The notes under the pieces: generated by a model
The model's database searches: none
The model's input: the letters and a program-made list of their open reading frames with translations, nothing else
What the model was told of the DNA's origin: nothing
Origin: Candidatus Dormiibacterota bacterium
GTDB taxonomy: Bacteria > Chloroflexota > Dormibacteria > Aeolococcales > Aeolococcaceae
Assembly (NCBI GenBank): GCA_036378495.1
Contig: DASUWI010000129.1
Span: forward strand, 1,172 to 65,171
Length of the DNA: 64,000 nucleotides
Direction of reading: 5' to 3'
Shown: piece by piece, positions 1 through 19,333 of the stretch
Layout of the letters: each line of letters starts with the position of its first letter
How positions within the stretch are numbered: the stretch's first letter is position 1
Program-made: the position numbers and the translations under genes

Positions 1-616
1 GGTGAAGCGCTCTCGCAGTTCGATGAGCAGGTCGCACAGCAGGCTGAATGGGCGCGTATCCCCCGCGGCAGCTGCGTCCGTCATCAGAGCGATGGTGAAA
101 TCCTTCGCTGCATCAACGACATCGCTCTGGTTGCCGGCGATGCCGAGACGCACCGCCGTTGCCAGAGCTCGGGTCGCGTATCCGCGGGCGAGGTTGTCGC
201 CGGATTCCAACGAGAAAAGGATGCGCGCCCACTCGAGCGCTGCCTGGGCAGCAGCGCCAACGTGGCGGCGGTGTTCCGGAGTGCCGCGTTGCCACAGGTA
301 GTCGCCGATCTGCATCCGGATCCGTGGACTTGGCGACGTCATCCGCACGGCCAACAGGTCGATCACTTCCGCGTCCGGAGCGAGGAGGTCCCACGGGATA
401 GCGCCGAAGATCGCAGCTTCAAGCCCGAGTGCGCGAACCTCGGTGTTCGTGTCCCCAAGCGCGGCGGCAGCAGCCTCGTAGTAGGTGTTGAGGTGTGTGA
501 AGAGCTCGACATCGGAGATAGAAGGATCACTGGCCGCGACATCACGCGCGGCAGGATCGAGCGGCGGCTGCGCGTCAGCGCTCGCGTCGGTCGTCAAGTC
601 CTGCTCGGGAATCGTT
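1..616 (-). CDS. Hypothetical protein, partial (C-terminus runs past window start); co-oriented directly downstream of the Type I RM operon
   Basis: Stop-free minus-strand frame from a GTG at ~616-614 (just after an in-frame TAG) to position 1. It is absent from the ORF track because it has no ATG. The translation (…ELFTHLNTYYEAAAAALGDTNTEVRALGLEAAIFG…) has protein-like composition. Local GC (~63%) is below the flanking chromosome. Confidence 0.35.
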
Positions 617-678
617 GATACCACCGTGGGGTTCGACTAGGAATGCACTCCGACCACCACAGGGTGATCGTTTACAGC

Positions 679-1758
679 CTACGCTGTGGCCGATCCGCGC
701 GTCGCCCTTTCAACCGCCTCTGCCCACTGGAGGCGCGCGTAAAAGTGCGAGCACCACGCTGCTCTCGTCTCGTCGTCTTTGTCGGCGAACTCGTCGGCGA
801 GAAACTCGAAGCGCTCGAAGGTGCCCTCCCAGCCAGGCTGCATGTAGTTCTGGGTCATGAAGACGGAATCAAGCGCGCACGTGATGTCGAACGACCAGGG
901 ATCGAGCAACAGCGGCTGCTGCTGATCCAGCGCAAGCGCGTCGAGCAGCGTGTCCACCGATTCGCGGCAGGGTATGCGCGCAAGCGCAAGGCAGCACGCT
1001 TGACCCGGCAAGCCGACCGGGCGGTCCAACAGTAGCGAGCGCACCCGCCTGAGGAACTGTCGGCGCCTCGTGATCGCAATGAACGTAACGCCTACCAGGC
1101 ATTCCTTCTGCCCTCCCGTGGCGAGCAGTGCCTCGATGTCAGCGTCGGTCGCGCGGTACGCGAGCCGACCCAACTCGTAGTCAACGTCGCGTAGGCGCAC
1201 CTCGTCCGCGGGGTAGCGTGGTATGTCCCACAGCGCGTCCCAGCACGGCTCGACCCAAGATTCCGCCAGGGTGCTGTTGGCGATGTAGGGCCTCGCACGT
1301 ACCGCCGCGCGCATGTGAAGGAGCCGACCTCGCACCTCGTTGGCGATGCGGGTCCCGGCCAGGAAGAGGTTCGGCATGGCCCCTTCCACCCAGTGATCGT
1401 AGCGATAGAGGTAGAACAAGCTCTGCCACAGGACGTAGGTCTCGCCGGGCACGGGATCGTCGGGGTCGCCATTGTTGACCCGCTCGAGCAGCGGCTCCAT
1501 GCGAGCAGCATCCGTGCTGCTGCCGTACTCGGCGTTACGCGCGAAGAGGATCAGCCGTGCATAGCGGGGCCAGTACGTGTCCGGGGACCACAGATTCTCG
1601 AGGCTCTGCCATGACAAGGCGCCGTCGAGGTTGTGAATCTGCCCTCCTCCGAGTAGACCCACGCTCGGGAGCGTGAAGGGGTCCAAGTTGTTGGACTCGT
1701 TTCGGAGAAACGCACCATCGCGCAGCGCCTGCGCTTCCGCTCCTGGCAGGGCTGCCAC
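679..1758 (-). CDS. Hypothetical protein (359 aa, Trp/Tyr-rich, no recognisable motif), 120 bp downstream of hsdR on the same strand
   Basis: Long minus-strand ORF with balanced amino-acid composition. It is co-directional with hsdM-hsdS-hsdR, and the overlapping antisense ORFs are Arg/Pro-rich junk. Confidence 0.5.
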   Translation of the reverse strand: MAALPGAEAQALRDGAFLRNESNNLDPFTLPSVGLLGGGQIHNLDGALSWQSLENLWSPDTYWPRYARLILFARNAEYGSSTDAARMEPLLERVNNGDPDDPVPGETYVLWQSLFYLYRYDHWVEGAMPNLFLAGTRIANEVRGRLLHMRAAVRARPYIANSTLAESWVEPCWDALWDIPRYPADEVRLRDVDYELGRLAYRATDADIEALLATGGQKECLVGVTFIAITRRRQFLRRVRSLLLDRPVGLPGQACCLALARIPCRESVDTLLDALALDQQQPLLLDPWSFDITCALDSVFMTQNYMQPGWEGTFERFEFLADEFADKDDETRAAWCSHFYARLQWAEAVERATRGSATA

Positions 1759-1880
1759 GTAGTCGCGGATATCTTCGAAATTCTTGATGACCCAATCCTA
1801 CGGGTCGGCCCGCCAACGGGCCCCGTTTTGAGACGAGCTCGACACACAGCCCCGGGCTTTGAGTGCTCGCGGCGGAGACC

Positions 1881-4800
1881 TCAGTAATTCTCGTGAATGT
1901 AGGCGTACGCTTTGTCGAAGAGTTCGCCGGTGGTTGGGAGCCCGTATTTGTGCAGCACGTTCCGCACTTCGCGGCGCACCAGACGGTCACCGGTCTGAGT
2001 TGTCTCCCAACCGTCAAAGCTCACCTGGCGCACGATGGTGTCGATGTCGTTGACGACGTTCTCGATGATCACCGGCGTATCTGGGGGTGCGTATTCCTTG
2101 AAGATCTGGGTGAGAGCGCCGACGTTGGGATCGGGCAGGAGATTCAGCGCGCCGGCGTCGTCGGCCTTCTCTGCTGCGGTCACCTCCGTGGCAAGGTCCA
2201 GTAGCTGCTTGAGAAAGTCCTGCGACGCCTTGGCCTGCTGAACCTGGGCCAGGCGGAGGCGTTCCAGCCTTGCCGAAAGCGCCACGAACACGTGGTGATG
2301 GCCGCTGCTTTCGATGCGGCGCTGGATCCGAGCGGCAATAGTGTCGAGGGCCTCGGCGACGGTGAGCGGCTCGGTCGGGTTGGCGACATCCGTATTGGGC
2401 AGCGCGAGCTGACGGATCGCTTCGATGGTCGCCTCATCGACGATCACGTCGTCGAGGGCGGTGGGACGTACGCGCACACCGGAGATATGGCCATGTACGA
2501 GCTCGAGCGTCTTTTGCCCGAGGCGCTGCCAGAGGAGAGCATCGGACACGCCGGTGGGCTTGACGGATTCGTAGACCTTGGCCAGCCAACGGTAGTCATC
2601 CCGATATGGATCGAGGGCGCTGCTTGGCGACAAGAACTCCCACAGGCCCTCGCAGTGCATGAACTCGTGAGCAAAGTCCTCTCGTTGCGGGCCCTGAGGA
2701 ATACGTTGCTGCGCAGCGTGGAGAGCCGCGAACGAGAAGTCGGTGCGATCGATGCCGTCGAAACGCGAGAGCGCCACCGCGATCGCTGCTTCGAGCTCGG
2801 TTACGAGCCCCTCGACATCGACGGGCCGGCGCCCGCCGAACTCGGGATCGGCCGCTTTCAACGCTGCCGCGATGTCGTTGCCAAGGCCGACGTAGTCCAC
2901 GATGAGGCCGAAGAGTTTCTCTTGCCCGGTGAACGGGTTGGTCCAGCGCCTGTTGGTGCGCGTGATTGCCTGGAACAGGGTGTGCAGCCGCAGCGGCTTG
3001 TCGAGGTACATAACGCCCTCAATGGGCGCGTTGAAGCCTGTCAGCAGCTTGGAGGTGACGATGAGGAACGCCAGAGGGTCGGACGGGTCGCTGAACCGCG
3101 CCTTGAGGGCGGCTTCTTGGTCGCTGGTGAGGCCAAAGCGATCGCGCCACTCCGGCGGCTCCGACTTCGTGGTGCTCGTGGTCATGACCACCGCAGCTTC
3201 GAGATCGACCCTTGCTTGCTCCAGGATGCGGGTGATTTCGTCGAAGTAGAGAACGCAGAGCTGGCGATCGAAGGCGACGACCTGAGCCTTGAGACCCAGG
3301 GGCGCGACCTTAGTGAGGTAGTGCTCAACGATATCGGTGCACACCTTGCGCACGCGCTCTGGATTGCGCATGATCGTCTGCGCTCGCGCCGCTCGCTCCG
3401 AAAGCAGTTCGCGCTCCTCGTCGCTGAGGCTCTCCTCGTCGGCCATCGCGGCGAAGGCGTCATCGAGCGACTCGCGATCGACGTGGTACTCGACAAGGCG
3501 ACCTTCAACGTGGATGGGGACGGATGACCCATCCGTGATGGAGCGCTCCATCGAGTACTGGTTGAGCACCCACCCGGGATCGTCCTCTTCGCCAAAGAGC
3601 TTGAATGTGTTGCGATTTAGGTCCGCGATCGGCGTCCCGGTCAGCCCGAAGAACTGTGCCTGGGGAAGGGCCGTGCGCATGTCGGTGCCGAGACGACCCT
3701 CTTGGGTGCGATGCGCTTCATCGACCATCACGATGATGTTCGACCGGTTGTTGAGAAAGCCGGCGCCTTCGAAACGAAAGATCGTGGTTACGATGATCCC
3801 GCGCTCGTCTTGCGCGAGCATTCTGCGGAGGTCTTCCTTGGTTGCGGCGACGCGGAGTGTGGGCAGACCAACGGTCGTGAACTGGCGAACCGTCTGCTCG
3901 ACCAGCTCGATGCGATCCAGCACCATGAGGACGGTGGGACCACCGACGGATTCGTCGTTGAGCAACTTCAGGGCCGCGAATGCCATGAGCAGTGTCTTGC
4001 CGCTGCCCTGGTAGTGCCAGAGCAATCCCCGCTGTCGAGTCGGGTCCTTGACGCGGGCGTAGATTGCATCAGCGCCTTCGACTTGCGGATACCGAGGGAT
4101 GAGCTTGACATGGGTCGGCTTGCCATTGACGAGAGGCCGGTCGTACAGCGTGAAGTCGCGGAGAATCGCGAGCAGCTGCGCCGGATGGAGTAGTAGCTCG
4201 ACCGAGCGCATCACGCGTTCCGCTTGATCGAGATCGTAGGGGTCCTCGGTCGAGCCCCACATGAGCCACTCCTGTGGGAGCTGCCGAACGGCGCCGTAGT
4301 GGAATTCACGCCCTTCAGTGGCGAAACTCAGGATGTTCGGGACGAAGAAACTGGGCCACTCCGTTTCGTAGACGTTGTGAATGTCGTTGGCGCCAGTAAG
4401 CCAGCTCTCCTTCGCATTGACCGGGCTTTTGGTCTCACCCGGTACGACCGGAAGCCCGTTGATCCAGAGGACGATGTCAAAACGGCGCGCTTTCGGTCCG
4501 ACGCCGATGGTCACCTGGTTCGAGACCACAAAGCGGTTATTGCTGAGGTCGTCGAAGTCGATCAGGTGAACAGGGACGTAGGCGTCGGTGCCCATGTACT
4601 TGTGCGTACGCGCGCCGCGCATCCAGGTAACCATGCGCTCGTTCGCCGCAACGAGGCCATCCGTGTTGGCCGACAGGACGACCGCGCGAAGAATTGGCAA
4701 GATTTCGTCGACGCGAGACGGCACCGCTCGAGTTTCCGGGTTGAGGCGCAGCAGGGCGTCGATGAGATCCGACTCGATCAGGACACCGTCGGTGGTGCGG

Positions 4801-4901
4801 TTGAGCGAGGGGCCGTGAATGTAGATCCAGCCGAGGTCGGGCTGTGAAAGCCGCTCGATGATCGCCGGCTCAATGGTCGAGGCTTCGGTGAAACCGGTCA
4901 T
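1881..4901 (-). CDS. hsdR: Type I restriction enzyme R subunit (HsdR), SF2 helicase/endonuclease
   Basis: 1006 aa. Walker A (YQGSGKT) and DEAH-box (MVDEAH) motifs. It overlaps the hsdS stop, as is typical for hsdMSR operons. Confidence 0.9.
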   Translation of the reverse strand: MTGFTEASTIEPAIIERLSQPDLGWIYIHGPSLNRTTDGVLIESDLIDALLRLNPETRAVPSRVDEILPILRAVVLSANTDGLVAANERMVTWMRGARTHKYMGTDAYVPVHLIDFDDLSNNRFVVSNQVTIGVGPKARRFDIVLWINGLPVVPGETKSPVNAKESWLTGANDIHNVYETEWPSFFVPNILSFATEGREFHYGAVRQLPQEWLMWGSTEDPYDLDQAERVMRSVELLLHPAQLLAILRDFTLYDRPLVNGKPTHVKLIPRYPQVEGADAIYARVKDPTRQRGLLWHYQGSGKTLLMAFAALKLLNDESVGGPTVLMVLDRIELVEQTVRQFTTVGLPTLRVAATKEDLRRMLAQDERGIIVTTIFRFEGAGFLNNRSNIIVMVDEAHRTQEGRLGTDMRTALPQAQFFGLTGTPIADLNRNTFKLFGEEDDPGWVLNQYSMERSITDGSSVPIHVEGRLVEYHVDRESLDDAFAAMADEESLSDEERELLSERAARAQTIMRNPERVRKVCTDIVEHYLTKVAPLGLKAQVVAFDRQLCVLYFDEITRILEQARVDLEAAVVMTTSTTKSEPPEWRDRFGLTSDQEAALKARFSDPSDPLAFLIVTSKLLTGFNAPIEGVMYLDKPLRLHTLFQAITRTNRRWTNPFTGQEKLFGLIVDYVGLGNDIAAALKAADPEFGGRRPVDVEGLVTELEAAIAVALSRFDGIDRTDFSFAALHAAQQRIPQGPQREDFAHEFMHCEGLWEFLSPSSALDPYRDDYRWLAKVYESVKPTGVSDALLWQRLGQKTLELVHGHISGVRVRPTALDDVIVDEATIEAIRQLALPNTDVANPTEPLTVAEALDTIAARIQRRIESSGHHHVFVALSARLERLRLAQVQQAKASQDFLKQLLDLATEVTAAEKADDAGALNLLPDPNVGALTQIFKEYAPPDTPVIIENVVNDIDTIVRQVSFDGWETTQTGDRLVRREVRNVLHKYGLPTTGELFDKAYAYIHENY

Positions 4902-6093
4902 TCGGCTTCCGATCCCCTAGGATCGATCCCAACTCCGCGAACTGAGTCCAACAGTGAGGAAAGAAAAGCTCCGCGGAACACCGCAAAAGATCGTCGAAGC
5001 CTTGTCGCCACCTGTTCATGAGTCCGCAAAACGTCAATAAGGCGGGCGAATCGCTCTTGAAGGGCGAGGGGTGAACCGGAATACGTAGGTTGTTGATCAG
5101 GTCTTGATTCAGAGAAGGAACCGCTCCACTCTGGACAATGTCTGAAAGCGAAGTGGCTTCAAGAAACGCAAGAAGGTAGCCCGGGACGAGATCAGGCCCA
5201 GGAATAACCGCAAGATGATTCTCGTCGCACGCAGCCTCGGTCAGCAGCATGCGCTTCTTTTCAGTCCTGACCGCAGCACCTACGCGCGGCAGGGCCACGC
5301 TCCCCGCGGGCAGCAGTCGCGCACCCCTCTTTTCGAGGAGGTCTCGTGATACGCAAGTTGCAGCCAGGCTATAGCCGTACTCGTTTTCCGGCGACGTCAT
5401 ATCGGAGATCTTGAACCACGATATGGGGCCGCTTTTTGTCCCGGATATCGCAAGCGGTAGGCTGTTCCCCTGCGTGATCCTAGCTACCGAATTGAGCGCG
5501 ACCGAGGGGGTCTTACCTGAACGAAACCATTCACGGGCCAGTGCGGACCGCGCTTGAGATGCCGCCTTGATAGCTCTGGTGATGCTGGCGCCGTACGCGT
5601 CTGCTGCGTCCACGAGGCCGACGATTCGCCGTTGTTCATCGATCGGAGGTAGGGCTAGCTGAATCGTCCGCAAGCTCACGCTGTTGAGCGTTTTGCCTTT
5701 TACGGCTCGCCCTGCGCGCTCGCCGAGATTTTGAGACTCCAAGGCGAGAGCAAGAAAGCGCCTATCAACGTCGTCTATGCTCGGCTCAAGCCATGCGATC
5801 GCTTCGTTAGGAAACAAATCGCGAGCGGCAACACCAACACGGCCTATTGTCAACTTGAAACTCAACAGCAAGCTTCCAGCAGGAACCCGCTTGGCCTTAC
5901 CCTCAGCCTCAGCTTTTGCGGTGACACCCTCCCTCTGTGGATCGATTAGTCCGCCACCCTGCATGTCGGCGATCGTGCAAAACGGCCGTGCGAGATCGCT
6001 GGTCCAGTAGGAAGGGTCGTTCCGCGGCGGCGTCCTTCCGATTGTGATGGTCGCGATGTCACCCAAGCGGACTTCGCGCGAACGGTCACTCAT
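4870..6093 (-). CDS. hsdS: Type I restriction-modification specificity subunit (HsdS), two target-recognition domains
   Basis: 407 aa. Duplicated TRD architecture with conserved HsdS repeat motifs (…LGDI..I..GRTP…YW… and …LP.G.LL.S..LTIG.V…). Overlaps hsdM by 8 nt and hsdR by ~30 nt. GC is about 50-55%, much lower than the surroundings. Confidence 0.85.
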   Translation of the reverse strand: MSDRSREVRLGDIATITIGRTPPRNDPSYWTSDLARPFCTIADMQGGGLIDPQREGVTAKAEAEGKAKRVPAGSLLLSFKLTIGRVGVAARDLFPNEAIAWLEPSIDDVDRRFLALALESQNLGERAGRAVKGKTLNSVSLRTIQLALPPIDEQRRIVGLVDAADAYGASITRAIKAASQARSALAREWFRSGKTPSVALNSVARITQGNSLPLAISGTKSGPISWFKISDMTSPENEYGYSLAATCVSRDLLEKRGARLLPAGSVALPRVGAAVRTEKKRMLLTEAACDENHLAVIPGPDLVPGYLLAFLEATSLSDIVQSGAVPSLNQDLINNLRIPVHPSPFKSDSPALLTFCGLMNRWRQGFDDLLRCSAELFFPHCWTQFAELGSILGDRKPNDRFHRSLDH

Positions 6094-7633
6094 ACCCCGC
6101 TGCCTGCAGCTGCTCGCTCAGCGACGCCTCCGCTGCGTGAAGCTCCTCTTGAGCGAGCCGTAATTCCGTGAGCGCTGACTGTACGTCCAGAGCCTCGGCA
6201 ACGCTCGCCTGCACGTAACGGGCAATGTTGAGGTCCCAGCCGTTCGCCTCGATATCGCCCAGTGATGCGGATCTCGTTCCAACGCCGATATCCGTACCCT
6301 TCTGGTATGCGGTCGCGATGGCCTCCACATCGGCGGCTAGCATCCGATTCTGGTTGCGCCCTTTGGTGAAGCGCTGCGCACCATCGACGAACAGGACATG
6401 CCCGCGCCGATCGTCGGCCTTCTTGTTCCGGAAGATGAGCAAGCACGCCGGGATCCCCGTCGAGTAGAACAAGTTTGGTGCCAGCCCGATCACGGCCTCG
6501 AGCAGATCGGATTCGACGAGCTTCTGGCGAATCCTCTGCTCGACGCCACCGCGGAACAACACCCCGTGCGGCATGACGACACCGACTCGTCCGGTGCCTT
6601 GCCGCATCGAGTACACCATGTGCTGCACCCACGCGAAGTCGCCGGTAGACGCCGGCGGGATGCCAGCGAAGGCACGCACGTCACCGACCCAGTTCTCTGC
6701 GCCCCAGTTGGCCAGCGAGAACGGGGGATTCGTGATCACAACGTCGAAGCGCTGAATGTCACCTGTCCTGGTACGAAACAGCGGATCGCGCAAGGTGTCG
6801 CCGCGTAAGATCTGAAAGTCCTCGATCTCGTGCAGATAAAGGTTCATGCGCGCGATGGCCGCGGTTGTGAGATTCACCTCCTGGCCATAGAGCTTCAAGG
6901 TCCGCGGGTCACCACCCCTCTCTCGCACTTCTTGGATGGTCTCGACGAGCATGCCGCCGGAGCCGCAAGCGGGGTCGTAGACGCTTTCTCCGGGTTGCGG
7001 TTCGAGGATGTTGACGAGCAGGCGCACTACAGCGCGCGGAGTGAAGAACTCACCTGCCTTCTTGCCTGATGCGTCAGCGAACTGCTTGAGCAGATATTCG
7101 TAGGCGGCTCCGAGTACGTCGTGCGGGACGACCTTCGGGTTGAGGGTCAACGAGTTGAACGCGTTGATCAGGTTGAGCAAGGCCGCTTCAGGGAGGCGCT
7201 CCTTGTTGCCCCACGCCACGTCGCCGAAGATGCCGGCGAGCTTGCTCGGGTTGGCGGCCTGGAGGCGATCGAGAATGAGCCCCAACTTGGAGCCCACGTT
7301 CACCGTCGCGATGCGCACATCGTTCCAGTGGCAGCCGTCAGGCACCACAAAGCGGTGGTAATCGGCTTCCTCTTCGTCGCGGACCTCGTTGCCGTAGACG
7401 GCGAGCGCCTCGGCGTGCTCGAGGTCCCAGGTGTCGGAGATCCACTTGAAGAAGAGCAGCGGGAAGATGTAGGACTTGAAGTCGGCCGGGTCTACCGGTC
7501 CGCGGAGGCTGTCCGCAGCGGCCCAGAGCCGTCGCTCCAGCTCCGCTTGGGTGAGCGTAGTCGGGGCTGGTGGAACGCCCGACGCCCCGGCCGGCTGGTT
7601 TTCATGCTTCTTCCTGGTTGTGTAGGTCGCCAC
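6086..7633 (-). CDS. hsdM: Type I RM N6-adenine DNA methyltransferase subunit (HsdM)
   Basis: 515 aa. NPPF catalytic motif (VVITNPPFSLANWG), SAM-binding fold, and N-terminal HsdM_N-like region. Confidence 0.9.
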   Translation of the reverse strand: MATYTTRKKHENQPAGASGVPPAPTTLTQAELERRLWAAADSLRGPVDPADFKSYIFPLLFFKWISDTWDLEHAEALAVYGNEVRDEEEADYHRFVVPDGCHWNDVRIATVNVGSKLGLILDRLQAANPSKLAGIFGDVAWGNKERLPEAALLNLINAFNSLTLNPKVVPHDVLGAAYEYLLKQFADASGKKAGEFFTPRAVVRLLVNILEPQPGESVYDPACGSGGMLVETIQEVRERGGDPRTLKLYGQEVNLTTAAIARMNLYLHEIEDFQILRGDTLRDPLFRTRTGDIQRFDVVITNPPFSLANWGAENWVGDVRAFAGIPPASTGDFAWVQHMVYSMRQGTGRVGVVMPHGVLFRGGVEQRIRQKLVESDLLEAVIGLAPNLFYSTGIPACLLIFRNKKADDRRGHVLFVDGAQRFTKGRNQNRMLAADVEAIATAYQKGTDIGVGTRSASLGDIEANGWDLNIARYVQASVAEALDVQSALTELRLAQEELHAAEASLSEQLQAAGYE

Positions 7634-7912
7634 GGGGCAACCCTACGGTCCCGAGCGCCTCATGGGAACACCTGCCTGCTGCTCGTCCGGCCGGGTTCGG
7701 TTGACGCGGGGGTTGCGTCGGGAAGGCGCAATCCCGCCGGCTCGGGTATTGCCAGCTCAGGCCAAGCGTCGGTCTTGAGCGCGGGAAGCCGCCCGATTTC
7801 CCTGCTGGAGTGAGTCCGATTTCGACTCAATTTCGTTACGCGGCAGGTCGTCTGGCAGCATGGATGGCGAGACAGACAAACGTCACCGCCGACCGGTGAC
7901 AGACATGAGGAT

Positions 7913-8364: not shown

Positions 8365-8970
8365 TCACGCCGGCTTCTGCGGCCGAATCTCGTGCTGCAC
8401 GTAGCGCACGGGACCGACGATGTAGAGAAGGCGTCCGCGGGCCCGTTGCTCGATCGGGTGGCCAGCGACGTCGGTGGTGACGTGTCCAGTAACGCGACGC
8501 ACCTGGTAAATGCGAATGTCTTTGACGTAACCGCTGGCGTTCTTGCGAATACCGTCGTGGTAGGCGAGAACGAGATCGCCCGTTTCTGCGGTTCCCAGGC
8601 GGACGAATACCAGGTCGTGGGCGGAGAACCCAACGACATCGGTGTCAAGCCGCCAAGCAACCAAGCCGGGTTCGGGTGCGACAACCCACTGCCGCGGCGA
8701 CGAGTCGAGCACCGCCGCCAGGGAGAGGCCGCTGCTGGTAAGCCCTGGGACCTTGAGCGATCCGTCGGGCAGGCGCTGCAGCCTGCCGGCGTTGATCAGG
8801 GCGTTCACGGAGCGCTGCGTGGGGCCGTGGGAGCCGTGGCCGCGACCTTTGGCCACCTGTCGCAGCGACGGAGGATGCCCATACGCAAAGGTGTAGGACG
8901 CGATGTAATTCAGCGTCGCCAGGTCGCCCGGGGTCAGCTTGGTGTCGGGCCCGGGAGGCTTGCGGGGCAC
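8365..8970 (-). CDS. lexA: LexA-family transcriptional repressor (winged-helix DNA-binding domain plus S24 peptidase domain)
   Basis: 201 aa. N-terminus LTPGDL..L.YI....YGHPPSLRQVA.G.G…VNALINAGRL matches the LexA DNA-binding domain. The C-terminus carries S24 Ser (GFSAHD) and GDLVLAYH plus Lys motifs. A near-consensus SOS box lies ~25 bp upstream of its start. Confidence 0.8.
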   Translation of the reverse strand: MPRKPPGPDTKLTPGDLATLNYIASYTFAYGHPPSLRQVAKGRGHGSHGPTQRSVNALINAGRLQRLPDGSLKVPGLTSSGLSLAAVLDSSPRQWVVAPEPGLVAWRLDTDVVGFSAHDLVFVRLGTAETGDLVLAYHDGIRKNASGYVKDIRIYQVRRVTGHVTTDVAGHPIEQRARGRLLYIVGPVRYVQHEIRPQKPA

Positions 8971-8994: not shown

Positions 8995-9010
8995 TCGAAC
9001 AGATGTTCTA
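8995..9010. promoter_or_regulatory. SOS box (LexA operator) TCGAACagatGTTCtA in the lexA / ORF383 divergent promoter region
   Basis: It matches the actinobacterial/Gram-positive LexA box TCGAAC-N4-GTTCGA at 11 of 12 positions, and also fits the Cheo box CGAACRNRYGTTYC. It sits between the divergent starts at 8970 (lexA) and ~9003+. Confidence 0.6.
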
Positions 9011-10154
9011 TTCTTGCCGTGTCCGGTGGATACAATCTGTATCCCCAGCGTGGGGAGCGCCGCCGGCGGAGGCAGGTTCGGTGGGCTCCGGGCAGGGGGC
9101 GGACGCAGCGGTGAGTGCGGTGCTGCGCGTCAACGGCAGGTATGCGACGCAGCGGACGCTTGGGGCGACGCTCGACGCGGTGGCGGCGGTGGCGCTCGCC
9201 GCCGCCGATGGTGACCTGACGCGCGCGCAGTCGGTCAGAAAGTGGCAGTTCGACAGAGCGCAGCGGGCGGCGAACATGTCGCTGCCGGGCGCTGAGAGCA
9301 TCCGGCAACAGCTTGGGTTGACCTGGGCGCAGGTGTTGCGCATCGCACTCAACCCGGCAGAGCGACGCCGGCTCGCGTTGGTGCACGACCCGGACTGGCA
9401 GCTCGGGTTCGACGGGGGCGGGCAAGACCTGGCGGTGCAGGCGTTGCGAGCGGTCGCGTTGCGCGTGGGCGACGGCGCGCCGCTCTCCCAGGTGCTGTAC
9501 GACGAAGAGGCGCGCCGGATCGAGCAAGAGACCCGGCGCTGGCGTTCCGCAGATCCCGTGCGTATGCCGCGCAGCGTGTTCATCCTCGAGCAGTTCAGCG
9601 GTGCCTGGTGGGCGGCGCTCGAGGCGGCGGGGCTGCTCAGCACCGAGAGCGGCGAGAGTGCGGTGACGCAGGCGAAGCGCAAGCGCCTGTACGAGCAGCG
9701 CTACGACCAGCTGCCGCCGGTCGAGGCGATCCTCGAGCAAGCGCTCGAGGAGCTTGGGGCAATTCCGAACCGGGCGTATTTCGAACGCTGGTGCCGGCAC
9801 CGCGGCACAGAGCTGCCGCCGGAGCGGACCTGGCGGTTCGACGAGGTGATCGCAGCGCTGCGGCGCAGCCGAGCCGAACGCGGCCTGGCGACACCCGTTG
9901 CGGCGCGACGCAGCCGCAAGCTTCCGCCGCTGCCCGCGGGCGCGCGACCGCAGCCGCGCCGCCGCGGTGTCACGCGTGGAGATGCGATGGCGAGCCTGCG
10001 CCGCTACGCGAAGCTGTACCTGCCGGCGAATACCCTGCCGCGGCAGAAGCACTACATGCTCGCCAGCAGCGGCGACGCGCTGCTGCTCGCGTCGCACACG
10101 CTGCACAAGTTCGGACGTTTTCAAGATCTCTGCCGCGAGGCCGGCATCGCGTGA
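9003..10154 (+). CDS. Hypothetical protein (≤383 aa) transcribed divergently from lexA, downstream of the SOS box; start codon uncertain (the annotated ATG lies inside the SOS box, so alternative starts downstream are likely)
   Basis: Plus-strand ORF with protein-like composition (…EQFSGAWWAALEAAGLL…YFERWCRHRG…). The antisense 445-aa ORF is Arg-rich junk. Its stop TGA at 10152-10154 lies 2 nt before the ATG of the next gene (10157), suggesting translational coupling. Confidence 0.5.
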   Translation: MFYSCRVRWIQSVSPAWGAPPAEAGSVGSGQGADAAVSAVLRVNGRYATQRTLGATLDAVAAVALAAADGDLTRAQSVRKWQFDRAQRAANMSLPGAESIRQQLGLTWAQVLRIALNPAERRRLALVHDPDWQLGFDGGGQDLAVQALRAVALRVGDGAPLSQVLYDEEARRIEQETRRWRSADPVRMPRSVFILEQFSGAWWAALEAAGLLSTESGESAVTQAKRKRLYEQRYDQLPPVEAILEQALEELGAIPNRAYFERWCRHRGTELPPERTWRFDEVIAALRRSRAERGLATPVAARRSRKLPPLPAGARPQPRRRGVTRGDAMASLRRYAKLYLPANTLPRQKHYMLASSGDALLLASHTLHKFGRFQDLCREAGIA

Positions 10155-10156
10155 CC

Positions 10157-11797
10157 ATGAGCACCACGAACACGCCGCGCTCTTCCGGCGGGCGGCGGCG
10201 GCTGCGCCGCGCGCAGCAGAAACTGCGAGTGCCTGCCCGGCGCAGCATGCCGGAGAGGCTCCCTTTGGCAACGCGCTACAGCGACGACGCGGCGTTCGCC
10301 AACCCCTTCACGCTGATCGCGATGGTCAAGGGCATACCGGTGGTGCACCTGGACCTGCGGGCCGCATGTCAGCGCGTGTACGAGTGGGGCCCGTCCCGGA
10401 TGCCCGGCGAGTGGCACCTGGCGTATCTGTGCTTTGTCATCTCGCGCATCCCGGACATCCAGCCCTGGTACCAGCGCATGAAGAATGACCTGGAGTTCTG
10501 GGAGGCGTGCGGGTTCGACCCGGATCGCCTGCCCAGCTACCGCACGGTGCACCTGCGATTCACGGAACTGGAGGACGTGGCCGCCGTCTTCGAGCGCGCG
10601 GCGGCACACCTCATCGGGATCGCGCGCAAGCGCGACTCGAGAGTGGGCTGCTGGTGGCACATCGACGCGACGGAAGCCGAGACGCATGCCTCGCCGCAAC
10701 ACGATTGCACGGCGCGAGAGTTGTGTCCGACACGCAGGCGCAAGACGCAGCAGACGCCAACGATGCGCTCGGTGCCTATGGATGTCGCGCGCGCGATTCG
10801 CCAGGCCGAGGCCGAACAGCCGGCGGGCAGCGGCGATGCAGTGGAGTACGGAGAGTACACGCCGCAACCGGTTGCAAAACAGTTCAAAGATCCAACGCGA
10901 AAGGGCCGGCGGCTGCGGCTGGGCGACCACTGGTGGTACTCACGCGACCCCGATGCCGGGACACGGCTGTACAGCCGGGGCGACAGGGTGATCCGCGTGT
11001 GGCACGGCTACTTGCAGATCGACGTGGTGGACCATTTGACGGGCGGCTTGCTCTGCAGCCGCTTGGTCCCGGCGGACAGCTATGAGGCGCACGCGTACGC
11101 CGACGTGTACACCGCCACCGTGGGCAACACCGGTGTCGATCCGCTGCTCGTGGCCGGCGACAAGGGGTACTCGGTCAGCGACGTGTTCCGTCACAACACA
11201 GAGCACGGCGTGGGCTCTGTCTTCCCATACCGCAGGGCGGGCAAAGAGAAGGGCCGGCAGGGGACGGATCGTTACGACGCGTACGGGATCCCTCGCTGCC
11301 AGCACTGCGCCGGCGACACGCGTTTTCATTCTTTCGCGGTAGACCGCGGCATGCCCCGGCTGTGGTTCCGCTGCTTGCTGCCCAAGCAGCCGGGGTGTCA
11401 GAAGGTCCAGGTGATGCAGTGCGACGTGGCGCCGCGGTATCTGCTGCCCGTGTGGCGCAACGAACCTGCCTACGCGGCGATGCGCCATTCCCACCAGACG
11501 TACGAGCACCGGCACCGCAGCGCACGCATCCAGTACCTCACCGCCCCGGACACGCTGGCGCTGCGGCCCAAGCGTCCCGGCATCAAATGGCAGCAGCTGC
11601 GCGCGAACGCCGCGGTGCTCATCGACTGGCTGCGCATCTTGCGGCGGGTAGGCTGGGACGGGAGCGGGGTGCCGGCGCGAGTGGGTACGGTCGCGGTGAC
11701 CGGCGACGGCGGGATGCCGGAGCGCCTCGACATTATGCGCGGGCGGCGCCGGGCCAAGGCGCCTCCGGGCGCGAAAGCGTCGGCTCCGTCCCGCTAG
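10157..11797 (+). CDS. DDE-type transposase-like protein (IS4/IS5-superfamily signatures), 546 aa, Cys-rich C-terminal segment
   Basis: Starts at MSTTNTPRSS. The track ORF 9608..11797 is an upstream-extended frame. Motifs are WWHIDATE (first Asp), LLVAGDKGYSVSD (the ADKGY second-Asp signature of IS4/IS5 transposases) and YRRAGKE (Y..R...E). It also has CQHC…C…C clusters. The assignment was made by eye and is not verified. Confidence 0.45.
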   Translation: MSTTNTPRSSGGRRRLRRAQQKLRVPARRSMPERLPLATRYSDDAAFANPFTLIAMVKGIPVVHLDLRAACQRVYEWGPSRMPGEWHLAYLCFVISRIPDIQPWYQRMKNDLEFWEACGFDPDRLPSYRTVHLRFTELEDVAAVFERAAAHLIGIARKRDSRVGCWWHIDATEAETHASPQHDCTARELCPTRRRKTQQTPTMRSVPMDVARAIRQAEAEQPAGSGDAVEYGEYTPQPVAKQFKDPTRKGRRLRLGDHWWYSRDPDAGTRLYSRGDRVIRVWHGYLQIDVVDHLTGGLLCSRLVPADSYEAHAYADVYTATVGNTGVDPLLVAGDKGYSVSDVFRHNTEHGVGSVFPYRRAGKEKGRQGTDRYDAYGIPRCQHCAGDTRFHSFAVDRGMPRLWFRCLLPKQPGCQKVQVMQCDVAPRYLLPVWRNEPAYAAMRHSHQTYEHRHRSARIQYLTAPDTLALRPKRPGIKWQQLRANAAVLIDWLRILRRVGWDGSGVPARVGTVAVTGDGGMPERLDIMRGRRRAKAPPGAKASAPSR

Positions 11798-11984
11798 TCC
11801 GATCCCCTCGGGGGACGGGCGCAGCGCGCGCCAAAGCCTGCTCTGGGGCGTTTCTCGTTGTCCACCAAGGGCTCGTTTGATGTGCACAGCGCGCCGAAGA
11901 GGAGCTACGCGCGGCTTCTTCAGCGCCGAAAACGCTTACTGCACAAGGTTTTCGTCAACCTTGCAACTCGCGCTGCAACAAGCC

Positions 11985-12071
11985 TGGTGCCGGGAAAGGG
12001 ACTTGAACCCTTACGCCCTTACGAGCACAGCGCCCTGAACGCTGCGTGTCTACCAATTCCACCATCCCGGC
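11985..12071 (-). tRNA. tRNA-Leu (anticodon CAG), class II with long variable arm, CCA encoded
   Basis: Minus-strand sequence GCCGGGA-TG-GTGG…ACAC-G-CAGCG-TTCAGGG-CGCTG-(15-nt variable arm)-AAGGG-TTCAAGT-CCCTT-TCCCGGC-A-CCA. The acceptor stem is a perfect 7 bp. The anticodon loop TT-CAG-GG gives anticodon CAG. The T-loop is GTTCAAGTCC. Length is 87 nt. Confidence 0.85.
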
Positions 12072-12086
12072 TCGGGCCCATCGATA

Positions 12087-13601
12087 CTAGCAGTGGCCGG
12101 TGGCGGCCGCGGTCTGACGTCGCGTCGCAGCCGGAACGCGAACGGTGAAGCAGGCCCCGCCGCCACGGGCGCGGCGATACTCGACGGTTCCGCCGTGCGC
12201 CTGCGCGAGCTGCCTGACGATGTACAGGCCGAGGCCGGTTCCCTGCGCGGACCGGCGCACGTTGGCGAACTTGGTGAACAGCTTGGGGATGTCGGCGTCG
12301 GGCACGCCCGGACCGTTGTCGCTGAACGCGATCTCCACCATCGCGCCTGCCGATGCCGCCTTCACCTCCACGGGCGGTGAGCCGTACCGCATGGCATTGG
12401 TCATGAGATTGGTGACGATCTGCATCAGCCGGCCGCGGTCACCATCGACGGCGAGCCCGTCGGTGCACCGGATCTCGATCGATCCGCGGCTGTCGACCTC
12501 GCGCGCAGCCTCCTCGAGCAGCGGGCGCAACCGCAGCGGAGCGACGTGCAGGTCGAGGCGGCCGGCCTCGGCGCGGGTGACGACCAGCAGGTCTTCGAGC
12601 AGCCGGTGCAGGCGGTTGCCGCCCGTGGCCATGAGCTCGAGCAGGCGCTTTCGCATCGGGTCGTCGAGCCGGTCCCACTCGTCGAGAAGCGTCTCCGCGC
12701 TGCCGCGCATCAGCTGCACCGGACCGCGCAGCTCGTGCGCGGTGATCGCGACAAACTCGGCCTTCTCGTCGGCCGCCTTCTGCAGGCGCTCGTTGGCCTT
12801 GGCGAGCGTGCGCGACACGCGTTCGCGCTCCTCGCCGATGTCGTGCCGCTCCGTGTTGTCGCGCGTCACCTTGCCGAAGCCGACGAGGTCGCCGGCGTCG
12901 TTGTGCAGCGCGGTGATGACGACGCTCGCCCAGAACCGCGTGCCGTCCTTGCGCACGCGCCAGCCGTCCTCCTCGTAGCGGCCGTCGCGCGTGGCCAGCT
13001 CGAGCACGTGCTCCGGGTGCCGTCGCGCCTGCGCGTCGGCGCTGTAGAAGACGCGGAAGTGCTGCCCCGTGATCTCGCCGGCGGTGTAGCCCTTGAGCTT
13101 CTCGGCGCCGACGTTCCAGGTGGCGACGTTGCCGTCGGTGTCGAGCATGAAGATCGCGTAGTCGGCGACGCTGTCGACAAACGCGCGAAAGCGCGCCTCG
13201 CTGTCGAACGGCGCGCGCGATGGCGCGGCCTCCGGCGTGATGTCGTGCGCCTCCAGGATGAGATACGGCGTGCGCCCGCCGCTGTCGCGCACCGCCGTCA
13301 CGGTGCAATGGATCACGGCCTTCGTGTCGCCGGCCAGGCCGTGATCGACGGAGACGGCGTGCGGCTCGGTGGTCGCGCGCTGCAGCGCGGCCACCACCCG
13401 CTTGCGCGCGGCGGGGTCGACCAGGTCACCGAATGGGACGCCGCCCAAGCCGTCCGCCTCGCGGCCGAGGAGCGCAGCGAGACTCGCGTTCACGCGGACG
13501 ATGCACCCCGTCGGCTCGAGCACAGCCATGCCGGTGCCGGCGCCGTCGAACACCGCCCGGAAGATCTCGTGCTCGCCCTCCGGCAGTGGCTCGGCCGTCA
13601 T
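12087..13601 (-). CDS. Sensor histidine kinase with tandem PAS domains (HisKA plus HATPase_c)
   Basis: 504 aa. PAS-like repeats, H-box ITAHELRGPV, and G-box region (GTGLGLYIV) at the C-terminus. No cognate response regulator is adjacent. Confidence 0.8.
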   Translation of the reverse strand: MTAEPLPEGEHEIFRAVFDGAGTGMAVLEPTGCIVRVNASLAALLGREADGLGGVPFGDLVDPAARKRVVAALQRATTEPHAVSVDHGLAGDTKAVIHCTVTAVRDSGGRTPYLILEAHDITPEAAPSRAPFDSEARFRAFVDSVADYAIFMLDTDGNVATWNVGAEKLKGYTAGEITGQHFRVFYSADAQARRHPEHVLELATRDGRYEEDGWRVRKDGTRFWASVVITALHNDAGDLVGFGKVTRDNTERHDIGEERERVSRTLAKANERLQKAADEKAEFVAITAHELRGPVQLMRGSAETLLDEWDRLDDPMRKRLLELMATGGNRLHRLLEDLLVVTRAEAGRLDLHVAPLRLRPLLEEAAREVDSRGSIEIRCTDGLAVDGDRGRLMQIVTNLMTNAMRYGSPPVEVKAASAGAMVEIAFSDNGPGVPDADIPKLFTKFANVRRSAQGTGLGLYIVRQLAQAHGGTVEYRRARGGGACFTVRVPAATRRQTAAATGHC

Positions 13602-13711
13602 GGGGCGCCGCGCACGAGCGCGCTCGAAGGTGCCATCGTCAATGGGGGATTATCCCGTGCCGGCACAAAGGGGAATCGCCACGTCCCGGTTACAGGAGGG
13701 ACGCGCTTCGA

Positions 13712-15289
13712 TCAGTGACGCCAGCCGGCGATGTCGTCGAACCGCGCGGTGCTGTCGCCCGTGGCCGGGATCGGCATGGCTCCCAACGAGGCATGGACCA
13801 CGTAGGAGACCTCCGGCGTGTAGAGGAACACCGCCGTGGCGTCCAGCACGAGGTGGCGGCTGACCGAGGCCGCGGCCGAGATACGCGCCTGCGGGTCCGA
13901 GGCGGTGGCGAGGACGTCGAGCGCCTGATCGAGGAAGGGGTCCACCGGCGAGCCGGACACGTTGAAGCCCTGCGGCGGCGTGGCGTTGGATCGCCAGAAC
14001 GCGCTGACGTCGGGATCGGGGCCGCCATCCCAATCGCCCAGGGCCAGCTGGAAATCGTGCTGCTGGACGTCCGGTGACACGAAGTGGTCGGCGGGCACCG
14101 GCGTGACGCGGATGGTGACGCCGATCTTCGCCAGCTGCGTGGCCAGCTCGGCGGCGACCGTGCGCAGGGGTTCGACATCGGGCACGGTGAGCGAGTAGCT
14201 GAGCGCCACGGCGCCGCGGACGCGGGTGCCCTGTGCGTTGAGGCTCCACCCGTCCTGCTGGAGGTACGCGCTCGCCTGCGCCGCGGACGTGGTTCCGGCC
14301 GACGCCGGTCCGGCCGCCCACGGGAGGCCCTCGCTGATCGCCTGCACCTGCGGCGCCCCGCCCGAGGAGTCCAGCGCTCCCTGAATGATGGCCGCACGAT
14401 TCACCGCCAAGGCGATGGAGCCGCGAACCAGGAGGTCGTCGAGTCCCGGCACCCGCTCGTTGAAGAGCAGGTCGACGAACTGAAAGGTGCGGATGCTGTG
14501 CGCCACCGACCCCGAGCGCTTGAGCAGGGTGGCGCTCTGCTGCGGCGTCGCCGCCAGCACCGCGTCTGCGCCACCGCTGTTGTAGGCCGCCGCTGCGGCG
14601 GTGAAGCTGGTGTAGAGGTCGAAGCGGATGCGTCCCAACCCTGCGCGGGCGGTGGCATGGGGGTTGCGCTCCAGGTCGATCGCAGCGTCGGTGGCAGCCG
14701 CGACGCGGTAGGCGCCGGACGTGGCCAGCGGCTGGTTCGGCCGCGACGCGACTGCCGCCAGCTGCTTCGTGCTCAGGGTGCCGAACGGCAGGATCGGCAC
14801 CTGGGTGAGCGCGGCGCCGAAGGCGGTGTGCGGCGCCGGCAGTGTGAACACGACGTCGGACCCGGTGACCGCCAGCTTCACCCCCTGCACCAGCGACGCC
14901 AGGCGGCGGTCGGCGGTGGTCGACGTCTGCAGGAACGCGAACGTTGCGGCCACGTCGGCCGGCATGATCCGGCCGCCGGACGACCACCGCTGACCCGGTG
15001 CCAGCGTGAGGTGATACGTGAGCCCGTCGGCGCTGACCGAGTACTGCCGGGCCAGGTCGGGCCGGGGGACCGCGCCGGCGTCAAGCTGCAGGAGGCTGCG
15101 GTACAGCAGGTGGCCGACGTCGCGGACTGCGGGGTCCTGCTCACCGATCAGCGGATCCAGCGAGAGCGGCTCCTGCTCGACGACGAGCGCCTCACGAAAG
15201 TCGGGACCGCCGATGACGCCGAAGTGCAGCGAGGCGGCGACACCCAGGGAGATGACGGCGAGCACGGCCAGGGTGATCGCCGTGATCAC
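13712..15289 (-). CDS. ABC transporter substrate-binding protein, family 5 (peptide/nickel DppA/OppA-like), probable lipoprotein
   Basis: SBP_bac_5-like sequence (…LDPLIGEQDPAVRDVGHLLYRSLLQLD…GLTYHLTL.PGQRWSSG…). The start was moved to a GTG preceding a signal/TM segment (ITAITLAVLAVISLGVAA) so that it does not overlap secG. The track ORF extends to 15625. Confidence 0.7.
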   Translation of the reverse strand: MITAITLAVLAVISLGVAASLHFGVIGGPDFREALVVEQEPLSLDPLIGEQDPAVRDVGHLLYRSLLQLDAGAVPRPDLARQYSVSADGLTYHLTLAPGQRWSSGGRIMPADVAATFAFLQTSTTADRRLASLVQGVKLAVTGSDVVFTLPAPHTAFGAALTQVPILPFGTLSTKQLAAVASRPNQPLATSGAYRVAAATDAAIDLERNPHATARAGLGRIRFDLYTSFTAAAAAYNSGGADAVLAATPQQSATLLKRSGSVAHSIRTFQFVDLLFNERVPGLDDLLVRGSIALAVNRAAIIQGALDSSGGAPQVQAISEGLPWAAGPASAGTTSAAQASAYLQQDGWSLNAQGTRVRGAVALSYSLTVPDVEPLRTVAAELATQLAKIGVTIRVTPVPADHFVSPDVQQHDFQLALGDWDGGPDPDVSAFWRSNATPPQGFNVSGSPVDPFLDQALDVLATASDPQARISAAASVSRHLVLDATAVFLYTPEVSYVVHASLGAMPIPATGDSTARFDDIAGWRH

Positions 15290-15315
15290 CTCGCGGCGCC
15301 GGTTGCGGCGGAACT

Positions 15316-15549
15316 TTACTTGGTGACGTAGGTGGAGAGGACCGACAGGACGACGAACAGCCCGATCATCACCGCCGAGAACCGGAGCAGCCCCTGCTCC
15401 AGGCCCCGCCGGCGGCGGTACCCGCCGCCCGAGTCCGCCCCGCCCCCGATCGTTCCACCCAGCCCCGTCGCCTTCGGGGTCTGGAGCAGGATGCCAAGGA
15501 TCGCCAGGATTCCCACGGCGTCCTGCGCCACGGACAGTGCGGTCTTCAC
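15316..15549 (-). CDS. secG: Preprotein translocase subunit SecG
   Basis: ~77 aa from a GTG start. Two TM segments (AVGILAILGILLQ and MIGLFVVLSVL) with a Gly-rich loop (GLGGTIGGG) match the SecG family. It lies downstream of tpiA/gpmI, as in the actinobacterial gap-pgk-tpi-secG arrangement. Confidence 0.7.
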   Translation of the reverse strand: MKTALSVAQDAVGILAILGILLQTPKATGLGGTIGGGADSGGGYRRRRGLEQGLLRFSAVMIGLFVVLSVLSTYVTK

Positions 15550-15693
15550 CCAACCGCTCCTCCTCGATCGTGCACGGGCGCAAGTATAGAAGCCGCCTCC
15601 GCGCGCCACCCTCGGAGCGCGTCAAATTGCCATATCACTGTGGCACCGGCGCTCGCCACTACACAGACTTGTTTGTGGTACCGTTCATGCGAA

Positions 15694-16746
15694 ATGCCGC
15701 GACTGTCGGTGTCCCCGCGCTCCTGCCTTGCGCTGTGCCTGGCGACCCTGCTGGCGAGCGCCTGCGCGTCCTCCGCCACCACGGTGGGCGACCCGCGGCC
15801 CGCACCCCTGCTGGGCCCGGCGCCGGCCGAGCATCTGGCGGCCGACAGCGTCAGCCTGCTGCGCAGCGGCGCCCCCACGTTTGCGCAGCTGCAACTGCTG
15901 ATCGATGGCGCGCGGCTGACGCTGCACATCGAGATGTACGAGTTCAACAACGCCGCGCTGGTGGTGGCGGTGCTGGCTGCGCACGCCCGCGGTGTCGGCG
16001 TGACGGTGATCGACGATCCATCGGAGGTCACCAGCAACGCCACCGCGCAGCAGCTGCGCGGCGCCGGAATCGACGTGGTCGACTACCCGGTGCGACGGCT
16101 GATGATCGACCACGTGAAGCTGCTGGTGGTCGACGACACGGTTGCAGTCGTTGGTGGCATCAACTGGGGTTCGAGCTCGCCGGCGAACCACGACTACGAT
16201 GCGCTGATCCGCGGACCGGCGGTGGCCAATCTCGACCGCGTGTTCTTACGCGACCTGGTCACCTGCGGCCGCGCCGTCACGGTGCCGGCCGCCGTGACCG
16301 ACGCGGCGATCACCGTGGCGGCCACCCTCCCGGCGGCGGAGATCCGGCCGCTGGCCCTGCAGATGATCAACGCCGCCAGGCGCACGCTGCGGCTGGAGCT
16401 GTTCGTGCTCACCGACACCGGCGTCGTGCACGCGCTCGAGGCCGCACGGCTGCGCGGGGTGGACGTGCGGCTGCTTCTCGACCCGTCGCAGCACTCGAGT
16501 GACCCGTCGTACCAGGCGCTGCTCGCCGCCGGGGTGCCGCTTCGCTGGTATCGCAGCCACGGCGAGCTGCTGCACGCCAAGGCCATCGTGGCCGACGGCA
16601 CGTCGGTGCTCTTCGGCAGCGCCAACTGGTCGGGCGGCGGCTTCGCGCGCAACCACGAGCTCGACATCCAGCTGCCGCGGGCCCCGGGGGTCGCCGCCGC
16701 GATGCTCGCGCAGATGTCGCTCGACTGGGCCGCCAGCCCGGGCTAG
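15694..16746 (+). CDS. Phospholipase D-like / cardiolipin-synthase-family protein with two HKD motifs; lipoprotein signal peptide
   Basis: Two HxKxxxxD motifs (HVKLLVVDD…GGINW and HAKAIVADG…GSANW). The N-terminus MPRLSVSPRSCLALCLATLLASACASS is a signal peptide with a lipobox-like Cys. Confidence 0.75.
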   Translation: MPRLSVSPRSCLALCLATLLASACASSATTVGDPRPAPLLGPAPAEHLAADSVSLLRSGAPTFAQLQLLIDGARLTLHIEMYEFNNAALVVAVLAAHARGVGVTVIDDPSEVTSNATAQQLRGAGIDVVDYPVRRLMIDHVKLLVVDDTVAVVGGINWGSSSPANHDYDALIRGPAVANLDRVFLRDLVTCGRAVTVPAAVTDAAITVAATLPAAEIRPLALQMINAARRTLRLELFVLTDTGVVHALEAARLRGVDVRLLLDPSQHSSDPSYQALLAAGVPLRWYRSHGELLHAKAIVADGTSVLFGSANWSGGGFARNHELDIQLPRAPGVAAAMLAQMSLDWAASPG

Positions 16747-16945
16747 TGGAGCGCGCCGGGTCCGTGATGATGGAACGCGAGCAGGTCGCGCTGGCGGCCC
16801 GGGCGTCCCGGGGATGCCCATCGAAGTCGGCCGGCCTCCGTGCATCGGGCCTCATCGCGTGCCCGTACCCGCGATTCTACCCCTTCTAACGCCAATGGCC
16901 ATTAGCTATTGAGCTGGCATGTCCCGGCGCGTCCTGCGGTTCCCG

Positions 16946-16974
16946 TTTGACAAGCGAGCGGTTGCGATATATCG
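16946..16974 (+). promoter_or_regulatory. Putative sigma70-like promoter (-35 TTGACA) with a perfect 10-bp palindrome CGATATATCG overlapping the -10 region, upstream of the PadR gene (candidate autoregulatory operator)
   Basis: TTGACA at 16946-16951. The AT-rich palindrome CGATATATCG at 16965-16974 stands out in ~70% GC DNA, ~50-70 bp upstream of the PadR ORF. Confidence 0.3.
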
Positions 16975-17024
16975 TGATGGCACGTTTAGGCACCCGGTAG
17001 CACGCCGGAACGCCACCGAGAACC

Positions 17025-17720: not shown

Positions 17721-17759
17721 CACCCCGGGTCGCCCGAGCGCGACAGCGGGCTCACCGGC

Positions 17760-19325: not shown

Positions 19326-19333
19326 GGATTGAA

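Follow-up and report, generated by a model that had tools for sequence, protein, structure and literature searches.

Positions 1–7900 of a 64,000-nucleotide stretch (the window) of the 65,794-bp contig DASUWI010000129.1, from a soil Candidatus Dormibacteraeota, probably represent the right-hand portion of a defence island that was gained by horizontal transfer, lies beside a tRNA-Leu gene, and consists of separable modules. The island is most likely of a known kind, combining a Type I restriction-modification (R-M) operon that is possibly crippled, a single-gene HEPN effector (gene B), and an orphan helical protein (gene A). Open reading frame (ORF) analysis identified five minus-strand genes in this region, hsdM, hsdS, hsdR, gene A, and gene B, all co-oriented. 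This arrangement bears out the first-pass annotation of the DNA, which had described hsdM-hsdS-hsdR with two further genes downstream on the same strand. The GC content of 1–7900 is 62.3% compared to 70.4% in 12.1–64 kb, where the lowest 6-kb stretch has at least 68.2%. The low GC content that had been taken as a signature of acquisition is real, but the effect is smaller than claimed. A value of 50–55% had been given for hsdS, which is the lowest-GC gene of the block at 57.8%; 52–53% is limited to about 300 bp at the hsdS/hsdR junction (4921–5220). The Type I R-M operon and the GC difference together uphold the description of the region as a compositionally distinct defence island with extra cargo.

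The R-M operon was identified by profile searches against Pfam and PADLOC. hsdM (6086–7633) encodes a 515-amino acid N6-adenine DNA methyltransferase that matches N6_Mtase (E 1.4e-100) and HsdM_N in Pfam and MTase_I in PADLOC (E 2e-129). The hsdS ORF (4870–6093) encodes a specificity subunit of 407 amino acids that matches Methylase_S (E 5e-15) and the PADLOC model Specificity_I, with E values ranging from 1e-15 to 1e-26. hsdR (1881–4901) encodes a restriction and translocase subunit of 1006 amino acids with HSDR_N, SWI2_SNF2, ResIII, and T1R_D3-like matches in Pfam and a match to REase_I in PADLOC (E 3.6e-101). All three are encoded on the minus strand, and hsdS overlaps both of its neighbours, hsdM and hsdR. 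These data identify the genes as a three-subunit Type I R-M operon.

The window was compared with two related loci, L002 and L004, over the block at 1786–7811 of the window, 1743–8242 of L002, and 3233–9338 of L004. Across genes A and B and in the far flank to the right of 7807 or 8875, the window is 80–87% identical in nucleotide sequence to L002 or L004; genes A and B themselves are about 85% identical to their relatives (83–87%). No DNA similarity between the window and L002 or L004 was detectable in the 6-kb hsdMSR block (1786/1801–7806/7811). The R-M proteins are 28–34% identical between the window and these relatives, and L002 and L004 share 40–48%. The whole hsdMSR cassette has therefore been exchanged between conserved flanks, and the locus looks like a defence hotspot with swappable cargo. 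Genes A and B are thus not adapted to one particular R-M enzyme. Co-evolved contacts of their products with HsdR or HsdM are unlikely because the adjoining cassettes are only 28–34% identical while A and B are about 85% identical. The absence of a tie between these two genes and this R-M enzyme speaks against control by a specific R-M complex in the manner of PrrC.

The right edge of the cassette is marked by a conserved 45-bp element (7812–7856, minus strand) that contains the inverted repeat TGAGTC-N7-GACTCA and lies 174 bp upstream of hsdM. Its 29-nucleotide core (7812–7840) is identical in the window, L002, and L004, and the element is the only sequence between gene A and position 8875 that the window and L004 have in common. 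The 29-mer occurs once in the window, and the 19-nucleotide inverted-repeat part has one exact copy each in L002 and L004. The element was not found in JGI metagenomes, and no repeat is shared by the two cassette junctions. The element may serve as an operator or promoter element, or as a site of recombination.

The R-M operon had been described as complete and intact, but only the hsdM and hsdR frames are intact. One base is missing from hsdS at about 5073/5074 (minus strand GTT[C]CACCCC), and after 'NLRIPV' the frame in use encodes 66 unrelated residues and overlaps hsdR by 32 nucleotides. As a result of this deletion, the usual C-terminal segment of HsdS, 'IPVPPLALQERFARLIDVL...', is no longer read in frame. 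The canonical segment is readable in another frame as 'PLALQERFARLIDVLRTHEQ...' and ends at a TGA (4898–4900) that overlaps the ATG of hsdR (ATGA). Insertion of one C at about 5073/5074 yields an HsdS of 398 amino acids and restores the ATGA coupling to hsdR. With the repair, Methylase_S is matched in two stretches with 71.3 bits, as against a single stretch with 56.6 bits before, and the alignment to another HsdS lengthens from residue 176 to residue 354. An intact HsdS has central and C-terminal conserved helices that form a coiled coil for assembly, and the C-terminal helix is lost here. R-M activity is therefore doubtful, as judged from the replacement of this conserved helix. The same frameshifted HsdS product of 407 amino acids was also called on a separate Logan contig (L025, run SRR25158386). 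We take the frameshift to be a real allele on this basis, rather than an artefact of the metagenome-assembled genome, although the two assemblies may share the same reads.

A crippled hsdS raises the question of whether the locus is a decaying remnant, with R-M inactivated and the downstream genes non-functional. Loss of the HsdS C-terminal helix and of the ATGA coupling is consistent with decay, as is the presence of the frameshift in two assemblies. However, hsdM, hsdR, gene A, and gene B all have long, intact frames, and genes A and B are under purifying selection between loci. The ratio of nonsynonymous to synonymous substitution rates (dN/dS) against the orthologues is 0.14–0.20 for gene A and 0.27–0.37 for gene B, and the GC contents at third codon positions (GC3) are 0.81 and 0.74, respectively. 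These values show that A and B are real genes, as the earlier view implied, and not spurious ORFs. Moreover, a frameshift of one base is a recent change that might still revert or might be a population polymorphism, and in some Type I systems an HsdS with an altered C-terminus is still able to assemble. Decay of the whole locus is thus unlikely, and an island of separable modules remains the preferred interpretation.

Gene B (1–624, minus strand) runs off the left end of the window and starts at 597 (NCBI) or at 624 (GTG); the window holds the 5′ part of a gene for a protein of about 600 amino acids. The extension to the left that the first-pass annotation proposed was partly attained. The NCBI protein HEX6539829.1 (P0007), labelled 'DUF4209 domain-containing protein, partial', gives 589 amino acids and matches window positions 597..1 at 99.5%, with the start codon as the sole difference, but it is still cut by the contig end, and Logan contig L001 adds 90 residues only. 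The window fragment (206 amino acids, about 200 codons) has only a weak HEAT match in Pfam. P0007 matches PF13910 (DUF4209) at residues 475–563 with 32.0 bits, compared to a gathering cut-off of 22.3, and the orthologue in L002 (P0005, encoded at 10419–12215, 84% identical to P0007) matches the same family with 27.8 bits. In PADLOC, P0005 matches model PDLC05012 (PDC-S39) with an E value of 3.3e-20 and 70 bits. This match is nearly full-length, covering residues 65–554 of 598 in P0005 and positions 88–583 of 615 in the model. Gene B has an N-terminal helical-repeat region followed by a C-terminal DUF4209 HEPN domain. The segment L538-R539-N-R-V-G-H544-G545 ('LRNxxxHG') carries the Rx4H form of the Rx4-6H motif and is invariant in five close and four distant members. 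A PQxExxxR helix upstream of Rx4H is likewise invariant from Dormibacterota to Rhizobiales and Bacillus. A PDB sequence search with gene B gave no match, and an exact look-up of P0001 found nothing.

DUF4209 corresponds to the C6orf70/ERMARD HEPN family, which is predicted to be catalytically active, is reported in fusion with TPR repeats, and 'occurs in R-M related operons' (Anantharaman et al. 2013, PMC3710099). The PDC set comprises 145 untested candidates that were found through 'guilt-by-embedding' in BREX, DISARM, and Type I R-M (bioRxiv 10.1101/2024.01.29.577857). Gene B had been described as lacking any recognisable motif. This description no longer holds for P0007 and its orthologue, and the link between the family and R-M was published in 2013. 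These data identify gene B as a DUF4209 (C6orf70/ERMARD-type) HEPN protein and a predicted RNase.

The homologues of gene B occur in varied neighbourhoods. L002 has the order hsdMSR, gene A, a 289-amino acid gene, and gene B, and L009 has gene B, an integrase, and hsdMSR. In L005–L008 the homologue lies beside an integrase/excisionase pair. L021 and L022 each carry a TrwC relaxase and an insertion sequence on one side of gene B and the same integrase on the other, followed in L021 by DUF6414, SIR2_2, and an HsdR-like helicase and in L022 by a KwaB-like gene. The cargo beyond the B-integrase pair differs between L021 (11258–19984) and L022 (12237–21716), and the latter also encodes large unknown proteins. 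The relaxase and the upstream insertion sequence suggest that L021 and L022 are probably parts of an integrative conjugative element. Distant relatives on plasmids are solitary and lie near integrases and toxin-antitoxin pairs. Based on these contexts, gene B behaves like a one-gene module that mobile defence islands carry. The L002 island continues past gene B, and the island in the window therefore probably extends well to the left as well. The L002 region past gene B (12247–19328) holds small unknown genes, a Holliday-junction-resolvase-like endonuclease, a metallophosphatase, and a weak E2-CBASS match.

Gene A (679–1758, minus strand; HEX6539830.1, 'DUF6000 family protein') encodes 359 amino acids, 12 of which are tryptophan (3.3%). 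The first-pass annotation had described a tryptophan-rich protein with no recognisable motif; gene A is indeed uncharacterised, though a DUF6000 domain was matched. The DUF6000 match (PF19463, residues 195–275) has an E value of 1.3e-8 and 35.4 bits, compared to a cut-off of 25, and covers profile positions 34–113 of 185 only. The homologue in L003, which is 44% identical to gene A over its full length, matches DUF6000 with 53 bits. A profile search of 1.84 billion cluster representatives split the protein into two domains and found both together in two clusters only. The N-domain (residues ~17–156) has the motif '...G.pDDPV.G.T..LW..L..V.RADRF.EG....ALTRIANELRRRL', and the typical DUF6000 protein is a single-domain protein of about 200 amino acids from Streptomyces. 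A scan of genome contigs for the N-domain found three loci only, and a word-index protein search gave ten matches only.

The N-domain occurs elsewhere in small stand-alone proteins, in a fusion to PARG (a macro-domain enzyme, P0025), and as an insertion in the BREX protein PglX, between the N-terminal region and the methyltransferase core. The PglX insertion is about 140 amino acids long and was found in Planctomycetota (L010 9059–11527, L011 9131–11512, P0020, P0011). The proteins that carry it reach 775–950 bits in comparisons with PglX models and are encoded next to BrxB or PglZ. Some N-domain relatives reach DUF6508 (PF20118; P0011, 28.7 bits), and the N-domain of gene A itself has no direct DUF6508 match, only a distant likeness. 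No description of DUF6000, DUF6508, or the helical domain inserted in PglX was found in the literature searched. The AlphaFold2 model of gene A is confident and all-alpha (pLDDT 85.6, pTM 0.80). Structure searches with this model, which had been proposed as a check, gave only weak matches in the PDB, to HEAT/alphaRep-like structures and to the contact-dependent inhibition (CDI) immunity protein 5t87_B (TMt 0.64, E 1.5), and nothing in BFVD. The N-domain alone had no match in the PDB, and neither did the gene A sequence. No catalytic motif was seen. Taken together, the profile and model data indicate that gene A is a rare, non-enzymatic, all-helical fusion of a PglX-type domain and a HEAT-like DUF6000 domain. 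Neither A nor B matches an ordinary metabolic family, in keeping with the original proposal.

The position of genes A and B invites the idea that they form a two-component accessory system on the R-M operon, in which A would use its PglX-type domain to detect a phage anti-restriction protein or the condition of the R-M complex and then activate or restrain B. The two genes are adjacent, co-oriented, and 54–81 bp apart, and they follow directly after hsdR. No terminator-like site was found in the spacers, and co-transcription with hsdR may be presumed. L002 preserves the order hsdR-A-(x)-B and L004 preserves hsdR-A, and three of the four loci with the full two-domain gene A place it directly after hsdR. 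The N-domain also occurs in the methyltransferases of BREX, another modification-based defence. However, B homologues that are 49–52% identical are found without A in L005–L009, L021, and L022, as are the plasmid relatives, and A lies near B homologues only among the closest relatives. The 44% identical homologue of A in L003 has neither B nor R-M, and an unrelated gene of 289 amino acids separates A from B in L002. Moreover, the R-M cassette has been exchanged for ones that are only 28–34% identical while A and B have stayed about 85% identical. Co-occurrence and adjacency of A and B are not conserved as they would be in an obligate system, and a two-component system is very unlikely. Gene A was also considered as an antitoxin of gene B, and this was ruled out because B is widespread without A. 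The occurrence of B without A, of A without B or R-M in L003, and the inserted gene in L002 favour A and B as independent modules.

The first-pass annotation had suggested an undescribed two-gene cassette riding on hsdR. The pairing is not conserved, and the gene B family has already been predicted and catalogued. The association with R-M genes in other genomes, which it had proposed as a check, was found in part. A Type I R-M operon adjoins the B homologue in the window, L002, and L009, and the R-M locus L004 holds A only, but L003, L005–L008, and the plasmids lack the association.

These features suggest how the modules could act. Gene B would work much as PrrC and other R-M-linked HEPN proteins do, as a latent RNase that its N-terminal region holds in check. 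Phage infection would free the RNase, which could then cleave host or phage RNA and abort the infection. Gene B would in this way provide a single-gene second line of defence. Gene A may be a protein-binding adaptor or sensor. A more specific proposal is that A is an accessory module of modification-based immunity, with an N-domain that docks on or senses DNA-modification complexes or phage anti-restriction proteins and a DUF6000 scaffold that relays failure of R-M to effectors such as B. We consider this proposal highly speculative and improbable.

The island is flanked on the right by a tRNA-Leu gene (11985–12071) whose 3′ end faces it. No recognisable integrase lies beside this gene, no Rfam family other than the tRNA was found, and the RNA folds in the spacers were not unusual. 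A 356-amino acid ORF (10727–11797, plus strand) adjoins tRNA-Leu and has a DDE transposase match that is sub-threshold only. Upstream of hsdM, a gene for a 201-amino acid protein (8365–8970, minus strand) has a weak match to a LexA-type winged helix-turn-helix domain and may be an island regulator. It is divergent from an unknown gene of 383 amino acids (9003–10154, plus strand). The 201-amino acid gene is present in L002 (61% amino acid identity) and absent from L004, whereas the 383-amino acid gene is kept in both.

Several observations weigh against this reading of the region as an acquired island with defence functions in its accessory genes. No att-like repeat of tRNA-Leu was found. The window does not include the HEPN domain of gene B, which is seen only in orthologues and in the NCBI protein encoded on this contig, and the PDC-S39 match was obtained on the orthologue P0005. 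PDC-S39 and DUF4209 proteins are listed as candidates without any experiment (bioRxiv 10.1101/2024.01.29.577857). The PADLOC check recovered the R-M genes and P0005 but neither gene A nor the 206-amino acid window fragment of gene B. Likewise, gene A had no match in phage and plasmid collections by tblastn or in a PHROG-type search. On linear plasmids of Streptomyces, stand-alone DUF6000 genes occupy variable regions, and their unrelated neighbours include no R-M or defence genes. The L003 homologue lies beside IS3, and the stand-alone N-domain gene L012 adjoins a catalase gene, both in contexts that lack defence genes. These contexts and the missing matches are what would be expected if gene A were a passenger of the mobile island, for example an immunity-like or scaffold protein from another conflict or housekeeping system, with only R-M and B serving defence; the weak likeness to 5t87_B also hints at an immunity-like helical fold. 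On the other hand, the full architecture is confined to two clusters, gene A directly follows hsdR in most of the loci that have it, and its N-domain recurs within PglX and in a fusion with PARG, both of which are conflict-system proteins. A passenger role for gene A seems fairly unlikely, and the region is still best described as a defence island of separable modules.

Gene A is the only truly uncharacterised component, and the rest of the island is mostly ordinary. What is new is the combination of domains in gene A, together with the connection between its N-domain and BREX PglX. The occurrence of one helical domain in an R-M-adjacent orphan and in PglX insertions could point to a shared regulatory or docking function. 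With whole hsdMSR cassettes exchanged between conserved flanks, the related loci illustrate a natural defence hotspot in a phylum that has received little study. An active gene B would add a Dormibacterota example to the R-M-linked HEPN 'second line' defences and would serve as a test case for the candidate PDC-S39, with R539 and H544 as defined catalytic residues. None of these findings overturns current views.

The closest known type is PDC-S39/C6orf70 (PF13910). Gene B shares with it a length of about 600 amino acids, a helical N-terminal region, and a C-terminal DUF4209 HEPN domain with Rx4H, and it is likewise a solitary gene in R-M-linked or mobile islands (PMC3710099; bioRxiv 10.1101/2024.01.29.577857). 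It differs in that the match is moderate (70 bits, on the orthologue), that it follows the R-M operon instead of lying inside it, and that it comes from Dormibacterota. PrrC-EcoprrI and RloC, anticodon nucleases associated with Type Ic R-M, resemble gene B in the physical linkage of a HEPN RNase gene to hsdMSR and in the expected role of a latent suicide RNase as a backup to restriction (PMC3710099). PrrC has an ABC-ATPase fused to the HEPN domain and is encoded within the hsd genes, whereas gene B has none of these properties. It lies two genes downstream of hsdR, and its occurrence without R-M and beside unrelated R-M cassettes makes control by a specific R-M enzyme unlikely. Neither P0007 nor P0005 has an ATPase domain, and membership in PrrC was rejected for this reason. 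HEC-08, the DUF3644 HEPN protein of Hma systems, is what gene B is predicted to be, a single-gene HEPN defence, and was found by its embedding in a larger defence system. Unlike the gene B family it has been tested experimentally, and its defence is lost on mutation of the Rx4-6H histidine. Among DUF6000, DUF6508, and PglX-insertion proteins, gene A is set apart by joining the N-domain to DUF6000, a fusion found in 2 of the 1.84 billion cluster representatives.

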